A DNA stretch of 64,000 nt, from contig NC_087250.1 of NCBI RefSeq assembly GCF_037042905.1, positions 8,434,001-8,498,000 of the forward strand, written 5' to 3'. Shown here in pieces: positions 25,780 to 39,288 of this stretch. The translations under genes were made by a program, and so were the position numbers. This DNA comes from Lytechinus pictus (Eukaryota). The notes beneath the pieces were generated by a model, which worked only from the letters and a program-made list of their open reading frames with translations, searched no databases and was not told where the DNA came from. The stretch's first letter is position 1. Every line of letters begins with the position of its first letter.

Positions 25780-25915
25780 ATGCCTCTGCCAGAAACAGAT
25801 GAATATTCAGATGTCCAGGTTTACTTCACAGCCAATGAATGGGCAGATATCAGCGATTACGAAAGGATTTGTATCCAGAATGTCAAGGAAAACTATGAGA
25901 TGATGACACAAGTTG
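25780..25915 (+). CDS. KRAB-A-like exon, [45 protein letters not shown](G)
   Basis: The pattern DVxVYFTxxEWxxxxxxE...NVKxNY...G aligns by eye with the PRDM9/SSX KRAB. It ends in a phase-1 intron within the Gly codon, as KRAB-A exons do. Acceptor tcctag at 25721-25726, ATG in tcaccATG context. Confidence 0.9.
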
Positions 25916-28900
25916 GTAGGTGCAGTAATTTGTCAGAAGAACTTTTGTCCATTCATTGAAAAAAAAAAGATTTAGCCATTGAAATTTGGTTCCTTAGATT
26001 AATTCAAGACCTGGGCCGGCATTCAATTTGATTCTTAGGCCAGAATATTAAGTATTTTACTCAGCATTTTTGTTTGAGTAAAATACTTATCCATCTTTGG
26101 TATTCAACTGTATTTTTGGCTAAGTATTTTTCTTAAATCTAAGTCAGCCGCCTACCAGACTTAAGACTGGCTTATGTGCAATATTAGTTATGATACAATA
26201 CATGCAGTCATACATACTGCACACAGATGGATACAATCATTGCACGTTTCTTGGCTCAAATTTCATGACGTCACAATGGTTTGCTTAAATTTGACTTGAT
26301 AAACTAAAATACTTGGATGTAATCTGAACATGCTTTTTAAATATTTCTACAAGCCCAGTAAAATTTTAAGTAGGCCTACAAGACCTCAAAAATCAATACT
26401 TCCAATTGAATAGAGTCCCTGGAACTTATCATTCCTAGACCTATTTTGAGAGGGAGATTGGCTAGATCAGAAGCATTATAACCAGGTGGATGTTTCATAA
26501 AGCTGTTCGTAAGTTAAGAGTGACTTTAAGGACAACTGGTGATCCTTACGTGCTAAATAATCACCAACGAACAATGGTGAATAGCATTTACCACAAGAAA
26601 TAATTACTAGTCGTTCTTAAAGGTCAAGTCTAACCCATAAAATGTTGATTTGAATAAATGAAGAAAAATCAAACTAGCATCATGCTGAAGATCTCATCAA
26701 AATCGGATGTAAAATAAGAAAGTTATAACATTTTAGAATTTCGCTTACTTTTCACAAAACAGTTAGATGCACGTAACTCAGTGACATGCAAATGAGATAG
26801 TCTTTAATGTCCCTGACTATTTCTTTTGTTTTTTATTGTCGGAATTTTAATACAATATGTCATTTTTTACTGATTTGACAATAAGGGCCAACTTGACTGA
26901 ACCATGTAGTATCAAACAATGCTAATTCCACATGTTCAGGGAGGAATTATATCACTTGGAAATAAGGAGAACATTAGAATTTTTCATACTGTAATAAAAT
27001 ACAAAAGAAAAATTGAGTGGATGACATCAATCTCCTCATTTGCATGCCTACCAGGATATGCATATATATATGACTGTTTTGTGAAATTAAGCGAAAATTT
27101 AAAATATCATGAATTTCTTATTTTACATCTGATTTCGATGAAATTTTCATTGGTATGCTCATTGGATTATATTTTTATTTATTGCAACGTTTCATTGGGG
27201 TGGACTTGTCCTTTAAACTCAATCTTTAAAACTTAGGAACAGCTCTATGACAGAACACCCTGCTTGTACATTTTTGCTGTCATTTCATGGGAATTTTGTT
27301 TTAATAATGTCAATTAATTTGTTTTTTGTCAATATTGGTGTTTCATACCAACATTGAAAAAGCAATTTTTGTTTTTAATACACAGGGGTACAGGTCAACC
27401 CACCAATGTTCATGCAGCGTCAGCAGGGAATTCATAAAGAGATAATTGAGGAAAGTGAGGGGACAGAGACAAGAGGTTTGTGAATTTCCCATGTTTCTAC
27501 ATGTAACCTAGCAATATAAAATCAACAGAATGTTACACTGAAATTGTGATTTGCTCTATTGACAGATAATGTTTTGGGGGCAATTTATACAAAGGTAAAT
27601 TGTTTTTTGTGTCATTTGAAAAAAGGAAAAGAATATCACCTTCTTTGTGAAAGTTACGCACTAAATTTTGAGGTGATTTTCAATTGTCTCATCTTTCACG
27701 TATAAAGGCCTAATGAGTCGAGTGTTGTATGATGTATCACAAATATTCACAATTGTCCAGAGTCAGAATAACATTTTTGCTGATTGATTGGAATTGAACT
27801 TGGTTCATTGTTTGAACGTGATGATTCCAGAAGATTACAGTATGTAACAAAAAATTGAAGTCGAGTCTGTATGTAAATTACATCAGCAATGGCGGTGGCA
27901 TTGATTAATATACAAGAACCTGTGTATCATTTATTTTATAGAATAACTGAATTTTCTGGAGAATAATCATTTTTTACAACCATTCATAAGTAATTAGTGA
28001 TGCATTGCTAGCCATGCATCCAGTAAATTTGCTATGCAAAAGTAATTACCGGATGCATGGCTAGCCATGCGTCAGTAATTACTTATGCATGGTAATCATT
28101 CTATATCTATATATATTTGCGGGTAAATATTAATCCATCTCTTTTCTTCTCTAGGGTCTTCTGACGTTCATAATCAACAGGGAAATACATGTCATACAGA
28201 GAAGAATGAGTTACATAAAGAGAATTTGAATACAGTAAGTACGAGTATGCAAGAAAGTATTTGCATGTCTCTGAGCTCACTAGGACACATTAGTACATGC
28301 TTCGCTGCCAATGATTACAAGATCATACATTTTTTAATCCAGGTGGGTGTTTCATAAAGCTGTTCGTAAATTAAGAGCAACTTTAAGAATGACTGGGGAT
28401 CCTTTCTTGTGGTAAATGGTATATTGAATTGGCGATGGTTCACCAGTCGTTCTTAAAGTCACTCTTAAGAACAGCTTCATGAAACGATGTCCTGGGCCAA
28501 GTTCTGGCATATGCTTAAATAAAAATCCCACATTTCTATGATAATTTTTTTTCTTATTTTTCTTCTTAGCATGTGTTTTTGTTGCATGATCTGACATGTC
28601 AAAATGTTTGGTTTTATTTTTGGAATGTATGGTATCTTGATTTTTTTTTACCGGTAATTCTTTGTTTTTATTATATTTAGTTCACTATAAAAGTAGAGGC
28701 CGAGTATGATGATGATGGCAATCTGCTAGGTGAGGCTAATCACGATGCAGAAGGGAAAATTACTGATCTGGAATGGAAGAACTATGATCAAATTACCCAG
28801 ACACAAACCAATCCAATATTATCAGGTGATCAGAGGACCAAGTCAGGTGATCTCATCATTCTGTCATGTGATCAGAAGGCAGAAGAAGCTTCAGGAGGCA

Positions 28901-37900: not shown

Positions 37901-39288
37901 AATCCAATCTTACAGTACACAAACGTATCCATACTGGTGAGAAGCCCTATGTATGTGATCACTGTGGTAAGGCATTTAATGTTGAATCTCATCTTAAAAC
38001 ACATAAATGCATCCATACAGGTGAAAAGCTCTATGAGTGTGATCAATGTGGTAAGGCATTTCATCAAATATCCAATCTCACAACACATAAACGAATCCAT
38101 ACAGGTGAGAAACCCTTTGTATGTGTTCAGTGTGGTAGGATGTTTAATCAAAAAGGTAGCCTCACAATCCATAAACGAGTCCATACTGGTGAGAAGCCCT
38201 TTGAGTGTGATCTGTGTGGTAAGGCATTTAGTGATGGAAGTTCATTGAGAAGACACAAACGGATCCACACAGGTAAGAAGCCGTATGTTTGTGATCAATG
38301 TGGTAAGGCATTTAACCATGACTATACTCTTACAATGCATAAAAGAGTTCATACTGGTGAGAAGCCCTTTGTATGTGACCAATGTGGTAAGGCATTTTCT
38401 GAAAAATCCAATCTTACAGTACACAAACGTATCCATACTGGTGAGAAGCCCTATATATGTGATCAGTGTGGTAAGGCATTTAATGTTGAATCTCATCTTA
38501 AAACACATAAACGCATCCATACAGGTGAAAAGCCCTATGTGTGTGATCAGTGTGGTAAGGCATTTAATCGTGAAGATCTTCTCACAACACATAAACGAAT
38601 CCATACAGGTGAGAAACCCTTTGTATGTGTTCAATGTGGTAGGATGTTTAATCAAAAAGGTAGCCTCACAATCCATAAACGAGTCCATACTGGTGAGAAG
38701 CCCTTTGAGTGTGATCTGTGTGGTAAGGCATTTAGTGATGGAAGTTCATTGAGAAGACACAAACGGATCCACACAGGTAAGAAGCCGTATGTTTGTGATC
38801 AATGTGGTAAGGCATTTAACCATGACTATACTCTTACAATGCATAAAAGAGTTCATACTGGTGAGAAGCCCTTTGTATGTGACCAATGTGGTAAGGCATT
38901 TTCTGAAAAATCCAATCTTACAGTACACAAACGTATCCATACTGGTGAGAAGCCCTATATATGTGATCAGTGTGGTAAGGCATTTAATGTTGAATCTCAT
39001 CTTAAAACACATAAACGCATCCATACAGGTGAAAAGCCCTATGAGTGTGATCAATGTGGTAAGGCATTTCATCAAATATCCAATCTCACAACACATAAAC
39101 GAATCCATACAGGTGAGAAACCCTTTGTATGTGTTCAATGTGGTAGGATGTTTAATCAAAAAGGTAGCCTCACAATCCATAAACGAGTCCATACTGGTGA
39201 GAAGCCCTTTGAGTGTGATCAGTGTGGTAAGGCATTTAGTGATGGAAGTTCATTGAAAAGACACAAACGGACACAACTATGTTTGTGA
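25780..39288 (+). CDS. Spliced aKRAB-C2H2 zinc-finger gene (PRDM9-related, no PR/SET domain), ~970 aa; coding exons 25780-25915, 27386-27475, 28155-28234, 28681-28939, 36941-39288
   Basis: All four introns are GT-AG with polypyrimidine tracts. Phases match (1,1,0,1) and exon lengths sum to 2913 nt (971 codons) with no internal stop. The first four exons are conserved in the inverted paralog, with in-frame indels only. Confidence 0.85.
27386..27475 (+). CDS. Second coding exon, (G)[29 protein letters not shown]; PxFM motif completing the PRDM9/SSX-type KRAB
   Basis: cacag acceptor. PPMFM resembles the P.FM motif after the PRDM9/SSX KRAB. The paralog carries an in-frame 6-nt insertion here. 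The donor (AG/GTTTGT) is weak, and an in-phase alternative exists at 27455. Confidence 0.8.
28155..28234 (+). CDS. Third coding exon (linker), (G)[26 protein letters not shown]
   Basis: cttctctag acceptor, ACA/GTAAGT donor, open frame, 80 nt in both paralogs. Confidence 0.75.
28681..28939 (+). CDS. Fourth coding exon (acidic linker), [37 protein letters not shown]...FQSMYEK
   Basis: atttag acceptor and G/GTAAGC donor. The frame is open and differs from the ORF-track frame 28730..29005. Conserved in the paralog. Confidence 0.8.
29787..30180. mobile_element. Kolobok-like MITE nested in the hAT element
   Basis: ttaa-AGATAAAT...ATTTAGCT-ttaa. Related fragments at ~53200-53350 and ~54490-54690. 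Confidence 0.55.
31216..34425. mobile_element. Kolobok-like element (GGACGTTCCACAGTT TIR) carrying a ~230-bp tandem array
   Basis: TTAA flanks and 15-bp TIR. Same family as 3966-4883. Confidence 0.8.
32000..33970. repeat. Tandem array, about 9 units of 224-238 bp
   Basis: gcacatggaccc recurs at about 32027, 32251, 32484, 32716, 32941, 33179, 33417, 33655 and 33879. Confidence 0.9.
36941..39288 (+). CDS. Terminal zinc-finger exon: one isolated C2H2 finger (YRCEYC...HLKYKH), spacer, then 25 tandem Kruppel-type fingers (37192-39288) with TGEKP linkers
   Basis: ORF 36910..39288. The ttcttgatag acceptor gives the phase-1 junction GAT. 84-bp units. Finger 3 has C>F and finger 25 lacks its last His. 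Confidence 0.95.

Follow-up and report, generated by a model that had tools for sequence, protein, structure and literature searches.

The window analysed here is a stretch of 64,000 nucleotides from the sea urchin Lytechinus pictus, and its main gene occupies positions 25780-39288 of the forward strand (Table 1). This gene is probably an intact-looking sea urchin descendant of PRDM9 that retains the KRAB and the fingers and from which the methyltransferase domain is gone. The predicted exons join into 2913 nt, or 970 codons with a single, terminal stop, and all four introns have GT..AG ends and a pyrimidine tract. The predicted product consists of a PRDM9-type KRAB, a linker, a lone post-SET-type finger and 25 tandem C2H2 units. 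An intact paralog of the same structure lies on the opposite strand, and its exon 5 begins 553 bp outside the window, beyond the first base, in locus L060. The joined frame of the paralog stays open for at least 802 codons into that locus, its exon 4 carries an in-frame internal duplication, and upstream of the array it is 92.6% identical to the main gene at the amino-acid level. The first-pass annotation had described five exons splicing in phase in an echinoderm-like genome. Both statements hold, as the join is open across canonical introns and the host is an echinoid, with a tetrapod excluded.

Table 1. Coordinates of the main gene, the paralog and associated features within the 64,000-nucleotide window
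Feature	Position	Strand	Remarks
Exon 1	25780..25915	+	holds the start codon and an ancestral-type KRAB-A box; phase-1 donor G/GTAGGT
Exon 2	27386..27475	+	ancestral KRAB-B remnant NPPMFM (PxxFM motif) and short acidic stretch
Exon 3	28155..28234	+	short linker exon; donor ACA/GTAAGT
Exon 4	28681..28939	+	linker DDDGN...LEWKNYD...TQTQTNP...SCDQK common to urchin PRDM9-like proteins; phase-1 donor
Intron 4	28940..36940	+	8,001 bp; no SET-like sequence in it
hAT-like non-autonomous transposon	29377..35682		6,306 bp; paralog site empty
Exon 5	36941..39288	+	lone PRDM9-type finger 36952-37023, spacer, 25 C2H2 units from 37192; stop 39286-39288
Decayed array continuation	39277..40483	+	out of frame, interrupted; 84-bp repeats at 39277-39609 and 39890-40483
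Paralog exons 1-4	2090..6297 (6297-6162, 3795-3700, 3029-2950, 2507-2090)	-	canonical splice sites

Exon 2 of the main gene lacks the SEDEEW stretch that is conserved in PRDM9. The junctions of exon 3 recur in the public model P0009, and exon 4 is 54-55% identical to the PRDM9-like proteins P0006 and P0007 in tblastn (E 1e-15 to 4e-17). The acceptor of exon 5, ag/AT, matches that of the SET-bearing neighbour gene in position and phase. The isolated finger behind it had been taken for a relic of PRDM9, and it does correspond to the post-SET finger of the three SET-bearing urchin copies, with 68-76% identity and the same acceptor position and phase. Of the 25 units of 28 residues that follow, 23 are canonical; in unit 3 the first Cys is gone, and the stop interrupts unit 25. 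Three higher-order repeats of 504 bp, 94.6-96.2% alike, make up the last 18 units. Unit 25 has a net deficit of 14 bp relative to its two repeat equivalents, and it is this deficit that gives rise to the stop codon. The 25-finger array described earlier is thus present, but the description had overlooked the out-of-frame continuation that extends to about 40483. Among the fingers of the array dN/dS is 1.34 for helix codons and 0.14 for framework codons.

On the Pfam KRAB profile (PF01352) exon 1 scores a marginal 21.3 bits against a cut-off of 20.4 (E 2e-4), which equals the score of marsupial PRDM9. Its close relatives P0009 and P0010 fall below the cut-off with 18.1 and 18.3 bits, and P0002 and P0006 gave no match to this profile at E up to 0.1. 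Between exon 1 and the KRAB of Lytechinus PRDM9-like proteins the identity is 64-67%. The main gene has the aKRAB-A spacing, with two residues at the site of the modern-KRAB MLE, then NVKENY and then PxxFM (NPPMFM); this spacing and PxxFM are named as aKRAB features in PMC8835667. Across 19 KRAB proteins, vertebrate PRDM9 included, residues F16, E28, N34, K36-E40, G46, P52 and F54 do not vary. The SET-less genes carry ERICI where EKLRL stands in the PRDM9-like proteins, and have lost the SEDEEW stretch. In the AlphaFold2 model of P0009, which shares 93% identity with the main gene over the KRAB exon, residues 11-50 are helical with pLDDT 92-97, a helix is also found at 53-59, and the linker is disordered. 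Foldseek returned no match for this model. In VIA-align the ZNF93 KRAB chain 7z36_D was found at rank 13 (Z 3.2, rmsd 2.8, 36/42 residues), where it ties with unrelated helix-loop-helix chains.

The absence of a PR/SET domain was examined at several levels. A tblastn search of the whole 64-kb window with the SET parts of four PRDM9-like proteins from urchins reached a best E of 0.75, from 18 residues at 34625-34678 within the transposon insertion. The Pfam SET and PRDM2_PR profiles did not match any exon of the main gene; P0006, the positive control, scored 150 bits on PRDM2_PR. The SSXRD profile (PF09514), on which marsupial PRDM9 scored 56 bits as a control, matched neither the main-gene exons nor any urchin relative. 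Since the SET-bearing P0006 and Diadema P0032 were also unmatched, SSXRD is undetectable in echinoid PRDM9-like proteins generally. Intron 4 consists of 1.7 kb that is common with the paralog and a single insertion: the paralog intron aligns to the first 437 bp and to bases 6744-7730 with 87-88.5% identity. The insertion is flanked by the 8-bp duplication AAACTGTC at 29369-29376 and 35683-35690, and ends in perfect 14-bp terminal inverted repeats, CAGTGGCGTAGCTA. An 8-bp target-site duplication and short terminal inverted repeats are hallmarks of the hAT superfamily. A 238/476-bp tandem repeat occupies 32092-33972, and no open reading frame above 130 aa that could represent a transposase gene is found between 29377 and 35682, so the element is non-autonomous at best. 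The earlier claims that 6.3 kb of the last intron is a transposon bounded by a target-site duplication and lacking from the paralog, and that the intron hides no SET exons, are therefore borne out.

Predicted models from L. pictus and L. variegatus (P0002, P0010-12, P0019 and P0024) join the KRAB-linker part to the lone-finger/array exon at an equal DSG or SG boundary. P0009 is the only public model from the cluster that contains the main gene. Its exon 1-4 junctions match those of the main gene, and it ends after the repeated linker with no fingers; the C21-subgroup models P0014, P0016 and P0018 are fingerless as well. No protein identical to the main-gene product was present in the protein collection searched. 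The degree of novelty that the first-pass annotation assigned to the gene has to be lowered, as kindred SET-less KRAB-ZNF models already exist in the public Lytechinus annotation under generic ZNF names. No published description of the Lytechinus SET-less family was found in the literature. As the annotation had stated, SET-less KRAB-ZNFs are regarded as an innovation of the lobe-finned lineage: PMC8835667 and PMC6745500 place the origin in the coelacanth/tetrapod ancestor and treat echinoderms as holding the PRDM9-type ancestor only. The aKRAB catalogue of PMC8835667 has zero Lytechinus entries.

A genome-wide census returned 28 KRAB exons, all with a lone-finger exon downstream on the same strand. 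PRDM9-type SET exons lie between the two in three cases, a PHD exon in one, and neither in the remaining 24, which agrees with the duplicating family that had been proposed. No SET match occurs between the KRAB and finger exons of these 24 copies, and SET exons that are more than 90% identical to those of Lytechinus PRDM9-like genes were found at three loci only. The last-exon frames of the 28 paired genes span 315-1401 aa, and one copy on C10 has lost the zinc ligands of its lone finger. The main gene belongs to a cluster of six copies, tandem or inverted, at C6:8.25-8.47 Mb, with last-exon frames of 702-816 aa, and a complete PRDM9-like gene adjoins this cluster at C6:8.184-8.193 Mb. The helix series differs in each of the six copies, and each has a higher-order repeat of its own, 4, 5 or 6 fingers long.

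A tree was built from the KRAB and lone-finger segments (35 rows, 99 columns), with the KRABs of vertebrate KZFPs left out. All 27 SET-less rows fall in a single clade (support 100/100) that sits among the Lytechinus PRDM9-like genes; the support for that larger group is 97/93, and Diadema, Patiria and vertebrate PRDM9 branch outside it. At the level of these sequences a single origin of the SET-less family inside the echinoid PRDM9-like genes is established. Because of this nesting, KRAB zinc-finger genes appear to have arisen in sea urchins separately from those of vertebrates; the independently derived KZFP-like family that had been postulated fits the tree so composed. The family is older than the split of the two Lytechinus species, since P0024 and P0001 of L. 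variegatus nest inside two SET-less subgroups. For the KRAB and lone finger of the six cluster copies dN/dS is 0.23 (range 0.13-0.48, 15 pairs). For the pair of copies in the window the values are 0.11 (KRAB-A+B), 0.58 (linker) and 0.35 (finger and spacer). By these substitution rates and repeat structures the KRAB is under purifying selection, the DNA-contacting helix positions diversify and the arrays turn over fast by higher-order repeats.

Taken together, the data make it likely that the main gene is a five-exon PRDM9-derived gene that lost SET and is one of at least 24 such copies. A PRDM9-like ancestor would have lost three exons, those of the zinc knuckle and PR/SET, to give the five-exon Lytechinus gene; the SET-less form would then have multiplied to at least 24 copies, and one further copy has a PHD exon in place of SET. 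Lacking its own PR/SET domain, the product has no catalytic domain with which it could itself deposit H3K4me3 or H3K36me3. It may act as a sequence-specific DNA-binding adaptor whose finger array would read a long and fast-changing DNA target, with the PRDM9-type KRAB, its best-conserved part, recruiting protein partners. By analogy to the KRAB of PRDM9 itself, these partners are more probably the ones that the N-terminus of PRDM9 binds than a co-repressor of the TRIM28 type. Expression in the germline or the early embryo would be expected. Against this account stand the frameshift-shortened array with about 1.2 kb of decayed fingers, the zinc ligand lost from unit 3, the marginal Pfam KRAB, the fingerless P0009 and C21 models, and the failure to find an identical protein in the collection searched.

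It is possible, if rather unlikely, that the family is a functional analogue of vertebrate KZFPs, with arrays that track transposons or satellites and a KRAB that recruits a TIF1/TRIM28-like co-repressor in a convergent silencing system, a possibility that the first-pass annotation had raised. This is a narrower form of the account above and leaves the gene model unchanged. The tandem clusters, the copy number, the constrained KRAB, the diversifying helices and the paralog-specific array turnover all resemble KZFP evolution. PMC6745500 reports that coelacanth ancestral-type KRABs bind coelacanth KAP1, so an ancestral-type KRAB is compatible with a lineage-specific partner. However, the same paper reports no binding to either KAP1 for the PRDM9 KRABs of human and coelacanth. 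According to PMC8835667, TRIM28 binding by the PRDM9 KRAB needed four changes, F (A9), L (A20), V (A27) and MLE (A32-34), and in our own register onto those positions the main-gene KRAB has Q, I, C and KE and would carry none of the four. Tentatively, and against the balance of probability, the Lytechinus lineage may have re-run the step that created KZFPs: a PRDM9 copy would have lost SET and radiated, its descendants would police transposons or satellites by way of an ancestral-KRAB partner peculiar to the lineage, and side branches would have gained a PHD finger or a THAP domain.

A modulator of meiotic PRDM9-like function is improbable. Here the SET-less copies would bind DNA and PRDM9 partners without histone methylation, and so compete with or redirect the three complete proteins. 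The KRAB, linker and lone finger are kept from the PRDM9-like genes, a complete copy adjoins the cluster, and the minisatellite-like arrays resemble those of PRDM9 as given in PMC2779102. Yet two dozen diverged copies with differing arrays exceed the needs of a decoy, and the KRAB has its clade-specific ERICI and has lost SEDEEW. Even less probable is a decaying duplicate, in which pseudogenisation set in with the loss of SET and has left the open frames as young relics. The missing annotated product, the frameshifted 3' end of the array with one degenerate finger, the introns invaded by transposons and the C10 copy would fit such decay. They are opposed by the low dN/dS (0.11-0.23 on the KRAB, 0.14 on the finger framework), the frames kept in 28/28 paired last exons, the intact splice sites of both window copies and the subgroups common to L. 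variegatus. In urchin PRDM9-like genes three exons do separate the linker from the lone-finger exon, but a mis-modelled complete PRDM9 gene with SET exons overlooked or outside the window is extremely improbable, given that SET similarity is absent from the 64 kb at E below 0.7, that paralog-homologous sequence and one bounded insertion fully explain the last intron, and that SET matches between KRAB and finger exons number 0/24 among the SET-less copies.

The preferred reading, a PRDM9 descendant without SET, can be compared to several known systems. Like PRDM9 (Meisetz) and the urchin PRDM9-like P0006, P0007 and P0025, the main gene has an N-terminal ancestral KRAB-A with N[VI]KENY and a KRAB-B PxxFM, and it shares the urchin-specific linker with the latter. 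Its terminal exon also opens with a lone C2H2 finger behind a phase-1 acceptor, followed by a minisatellite-like C2H2 array. It differs in that the three zinc-knuckle and PR/SET exons are missing, and with them the methyltransferase; the PRDM9-like genes number three complete copies, whereas the SET-less family is far larger and its KRAB is altered as described. Primate PRDM7 is a duplicated PRDM9 paralog with domain loss. Teleost PRDM9 copies without KRAB are reported in PMC11600626, and in both cases, as in the urchin, a duplicated PRDM9 sheds one module while others stay. In primates and teleosts the copies have shed fingers or KRAB but not SET, whereas the urchin family loses SET, keeps KRAB and fingers, and expands widely. 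SSX proteins likewise use a PRDM9-type KRAB without SET (PMC8835667), but they have SSXRD and no fingers, while the main gene has fingers and no detectable SSXRD. With vertebrate KZFPs and coelacanth aKRAB-ZNFs, as described in PMC8835667 and PMC6745500, the family has in common a KRAB and C2H2 array without SET, a PRDM9 origin, clustered multiplication and diversifying fingers. Unlike vertebrate KZFPs, it appears to have its own origin within echinoid PRDM9-like genes, and its KRAB lacks the MLE-type TRIM28 determinants. The coelacanth genes are mostly single-exon according to PMC8835667, whereas those of the urchin are split into several exons and have retained the linker and lone finger of PRDM9.

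If true, an origin that repeats the vertebrate route independently would be a natural replicate for asking what the ancestral KRAB does when freed from the methyltransferase. It would likewise bear on whether TRIM28 is required at all for expansion and finger turnover. Sea urchins are open to injection of embryos and to work on gametes, which makes partners and targets directly testable. With complete PRDM9-like genes adjoining, the genome is also well suited to the question of whether echinoderms use PRDM9-directed recombination.

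The five-exon structure that the first-pass annotation had drawn for a KRAB zinc-finger gene without a SET domain (window positions 25780..39288, forward strand) stands. All four introns run GT..AG with pyrimidine tracts, and scripted joining of the exons gives 2913 nt, or 970 codons, in which the sole stop is terminal. Exon 1 matches the Pfam KRAB model over its cut-off (21.3 bits against 20.4, E 2e-4), and a score this low is typical of PRDM9-type KRABs since a marsupial PRDM9 scores exactly the same. The motif of exon 2 fits PxxFM, which is the ancestral KRAB-B motif by the naming of PMC8835667. 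Exon 5 opens with one isolated C2H2 finger (the lone finger, which in PRDM9 follows SET), and after a spacer come 25 units of 28 residues. Twenty-three of the 25 are canonical; in unit 3 the first cysteine is lost, and the stop codon truncates unit 25. Compared with its two repeat equivalents, unit 25 has a net deficit of 14 bp, which accounts for the present stop. The finger array runs on out of frame to about 40483. Searches of the window found no THAP exon (best E 6.7) and no PHD exon (residues 413-470 of the L. variegatus protein P0001 as query), and Rfam at gathering scores and ARAGORN gave no matches across it.

Exons of the window gene and the insertion in its last intron (window positions)
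Feature	Position	Strand	Length	Content or basis
Exon 1	25780-25915	+		KRAB; sequence reading and scripted joining
Exon 2	27386-27475	+		carries NPPMFM
Exon 3	28155-28234	+		sequence reading and scripted joining
Exon 4	28681-28939	+		sequence reading and scripted joining
Exon 5	36941-39288	+		lone finger, spacer, C2H2 array
Intron insertion	29377-35682		6,306 bp	absent from paralog intron

The last intron (8,001 bp) had been described as a transposon bounded by a target site duplication plus a remainder free of SET sequence, and comparison with the inverted paralog at 2090..6297 and searches for SET agree with this. The first 437 bp of the intron and its bases 6744-7730 align to the paralog intron with 87-88.5% identity, and the paralog has an empty site at the insertion. 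The insertion is flanked by the 8-bp duplication AAACTGTC, and its termini are inverted repeats of 14 bp that match perfectly. Duplications of 8 bp around an element with short inverted ends are characteristic of hAT transposons. No long open frame was found within the insertion, therefore the element would be non-autonomous, and by these features it is classed as a putative hAT-like, non-autonomous element. The SET parts of seven urchin relatives gave no tblastn match in the whole window, while the KRAB, linker, lone finger and array were all matched. A permissive search of the window, for which four proteins supplied their SET parts as queries, reached E 0.75 at best, in line with the original claim that no SET sequence is present. 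Two candidates were rejected. A match of 18 residues at 34625-34678 (E 0.75-4) lies within the transposon and is attributed to chance, and a match at 36940-36975 (E 0.004) is the start of the lone finger, present at the end of the SET slice taken from the public protein P0003, and not SET.

Several repeats were observed in the window. The hAT-like insertion holds a tandem repeat at 32092-33972 (238 bp, 8.1 copies, 84% matches) that was scored at a 476-bp period too, and a related 0.9-kb element lies in intron 1 of the paralog (3972-4888). The last intron of the paralog (1-720) has a GGC/GCC-rich microsatellite at about 590-680 and head-to-tail copies of a unit of about 180 bp, and neither is present in the last intron of the window gene. 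At 49193-50681 both strands give short repeated peptide units, that is, a satellite-like tandem repeat.

The SET-bearing Lytechinus PRDM9-like proteins P0006, P0007 and P0025 have the order KRAB, linker (DDDGN...LEWKDYD...TQTQTNP), zinc knuckle, PR/SET, lone finger, array. The window gene shares this order and the linker but has no zinc knuckle or PR/SET. A neighbouring PRDM9-like gene has exons with 97.5-100% identity to P0025 of L. pictus, which makes the genome that of L. pictus or of a very close relative. The last SET exon of this complete gene has a phase 1 end, and its finger exon begins ag/AT, exactly as in the window gene. Because this phase and acceptor are shared, the finger-side exon boundary is consistent with a loss of three internal exons that would have kept the frame.

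The lone-finger region as query matched sea urchin proteins only (8 of 36 candidates passed), so the genome is not the tetrapod one that would have refuted the first-pass reading. A KRAB profile search, in which 32 of 6955 candidates passed, reached L. pictus, L. variegatus, Strongylocentrotus, Diadema, one starfish, two hemichordates and two vertebrates. The KRAB clade of the window gene is marked by the motif ERICI where every PRDM9 row reads EK.R., and the two Lytechinus species were the only source of SET-less, ERICI-type KRAB-finger proteins in the profile search. No protein identical to the product of the window gene was among the protein-collection matches to either query. The whole last exon as query gave no identical or Lytechinus protein among the 120 matches listed, which are mostly generic zinc-finger proteins. 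P0009 is the only public model from the cluster on contig C6; it has the exon 1-4 junctions of the window gene and no fingers at its end. Predicted models from other subgroups (P0002, P0010-12, P0019 and P0024) join the KRAB-linker to the finger exon.

Unusual forms were also seen among the public models. S. purpuratus P0027 (257 aa) has a PRDM9-type KRAB (EKLRL) and a pre-SET exon followed straight by the lone finger, beyond which the array is out of frame; it is either a broken copy or a SET-skipping form of separate standing. L. pictus P0014, P0016 and P0018 (C21:3.58-3.73 Mb) have a predicted THAP domain (55.6 bits) upstream of an ERICI-type KRAB and linker, and the models are without fingers. 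They may possibly represent a THAP-KRAB fusion or a run-on model.

A census of the 811-Mb genome found 28 KRAB exons from 30 candidates at E up to 0.01, and 36 lone-finger exons. When KRAB and finger exons were paired by position, each of the 28 KRAB exons was followed on its own strand, at a distance of 5.7-25 kb, by a finger exon whose open frame is 315-1401 aa long. SET lies between the two exons in three of the 28 pairs, a PHD exon in one (82% identity to the PHD in P0001) and neither in 24, so the duplicating SET-less family first proposed is borne out. SET exons more than 90% identical to Lytechinus PRDM9-like ones occur at three loci only, all on C6. Six copies are grouped at C6:8.25-8.47 Mb, two of them in or at the window, and the complete gene adjoins them at 8.184-8.193 Mb. 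Two pairs on C21 (3.57-3.73 Mb and 11.93-11.98 Mb) have identical KRAB and lone-finger segments on opposite strands. They may be a single locus that was assembled twice, or else the result of a recent segmental duplication in inverted orientation.

Other members and relatives were noted in the same genome. Three complete-looking PRDM9-like genes with KRAB, SET and array are at C6:8184561-8193424, 15068695-15076068 and 20166203-20174870. On C17 one member has PHD where PRDM9 has SET (KRAB 878594, PHD 863464, finger exon 854174), and three more lone-finger exons follow it at 833-847 kb. This PHD member is common to L. pictus and L. variegatus (P0001, P0008; 100/99 in the tree). A second large family is found on C8, with more than 40 matches to PRDM9-like SET exons, 39-56% identical to Lytechinus PRDM9-like SET (loci L035-L058; for example 7.45-7.66 Mb, 22.75-22.80 Mb and 24.69-24.74 Mb). 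Two of these SET exons adjoin a diverged lone-finger exon with frames of 918-920 aa, and the KRAB search of the genome found no KRAB exon of the searched type on C8.

A maximum-likelihood tree was built from KRAB and lone-finger segments (35 rows, 99 columns, no vertebrate KZFP KRAB among the rows). All 27 SET-less rows form one clade (100/100) within the Lytechinus PRDM9-like group (97/93), and Diadema, Patiria and two vertebrate PRDM9 rows fall outside that group. Two SET-less subgroups contain L. variegatus sequences (P0024 and P0001), therefore the radiation is older than the split of the two Lytechinus species. Studies of KZFPs place their origin in the coelacanth/tetrapod ancestor and take the echinoderm KRAB to be the PRDM9 one (PMC6745500, PMC4592553). 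In Table S1 of PMC8835667 Lytechinus has 0 occurrences and Strongylocentrotus 6, two rows being filed as PRDM9 orthologues. The germ line of sea urchins is known to contain Prdm9 transcripts (PMC2779102), and a survey confined to SET-bearing genes counted 18 Prdm genes in S. purpuratus (PMC4760075). No published description of SET-less KRAB-finger genes in echinoderms was found in a search that covered few subscription journals. These results confirm the architecture first observed and support the evolutionary reading. Because the SET-less clade is nested in the Lytechinus PRDM9-like group and shares ERICI, these sequences support a PRDM9-derived family that would have arisen independently of vertebrate KZFPs, as had been claimed.

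Over the KRAB and lone finger (103 codons, 15 pairs) the six cluster copies have a mean dN of 0.037, a mean dS of 0.162 and a dN/dS of 0.23 (range 0.13-0.48); their intron p-distances are unusable where insertions differ. Between the window gene and its paralog dN/dS is 0.11 for KRAB-A+B, 0.58 for the linker and 0.35 for the finger and spacer. Among the 24 complete array units (unit 25 was left out) 17 are distinct at the DNA level. Within the array dN/dS is 0.14 for framework codons and 1.34 for helix codons, the latter from near-saturated values with 117 of 136 pairs computable, and variation per position is highest at helix -1, 2, 3 and 6. The last 18 units are arranged as three 504-bp repeats, which agree with one another at 94.6-96.2%. 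The helix series differs between all six paralogs, and the higher-order repeat, of 4, 5 or 6 fingers, is particular to each. PRDM9 and KZFPs evolve in this mode.

A structure was predicted with AlphaFold2 from a 19-row alignment for P0009, which has 93% identity to the window gene in the KRAB exon. Residues 11-50 were modelled as helices (pLDDT 92-97) and the linker as disordered. Foldseek found no match to the model in the PDB at E up to 0.001, and the KRAB profile gave one chance row (E 0.72) against the sequences of solved structures. With VIA-align the ZNF93 KRAB chain of 7Z36 was at rank 13 (Z 3.2), tied with unrelated helix-loop-helix chains. No methyltransferase domain is present in the protein of the window gene. 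Its KRAB belongs to the ancestral type, since it reads KE at the place of MLE in modern KRABs, and in our own register it has none of the four changes that PMC8835667 gives as required to bind TRIM28. The PRDM9 KRABs of human and coelacanth bind neither KAP1, whereas coelacanth KZFP KRABs do bind coelacanth KAP1 (PMC6745500). On these grounds the role in transposon control that was first suggested for this family may be regarded as a possibility.
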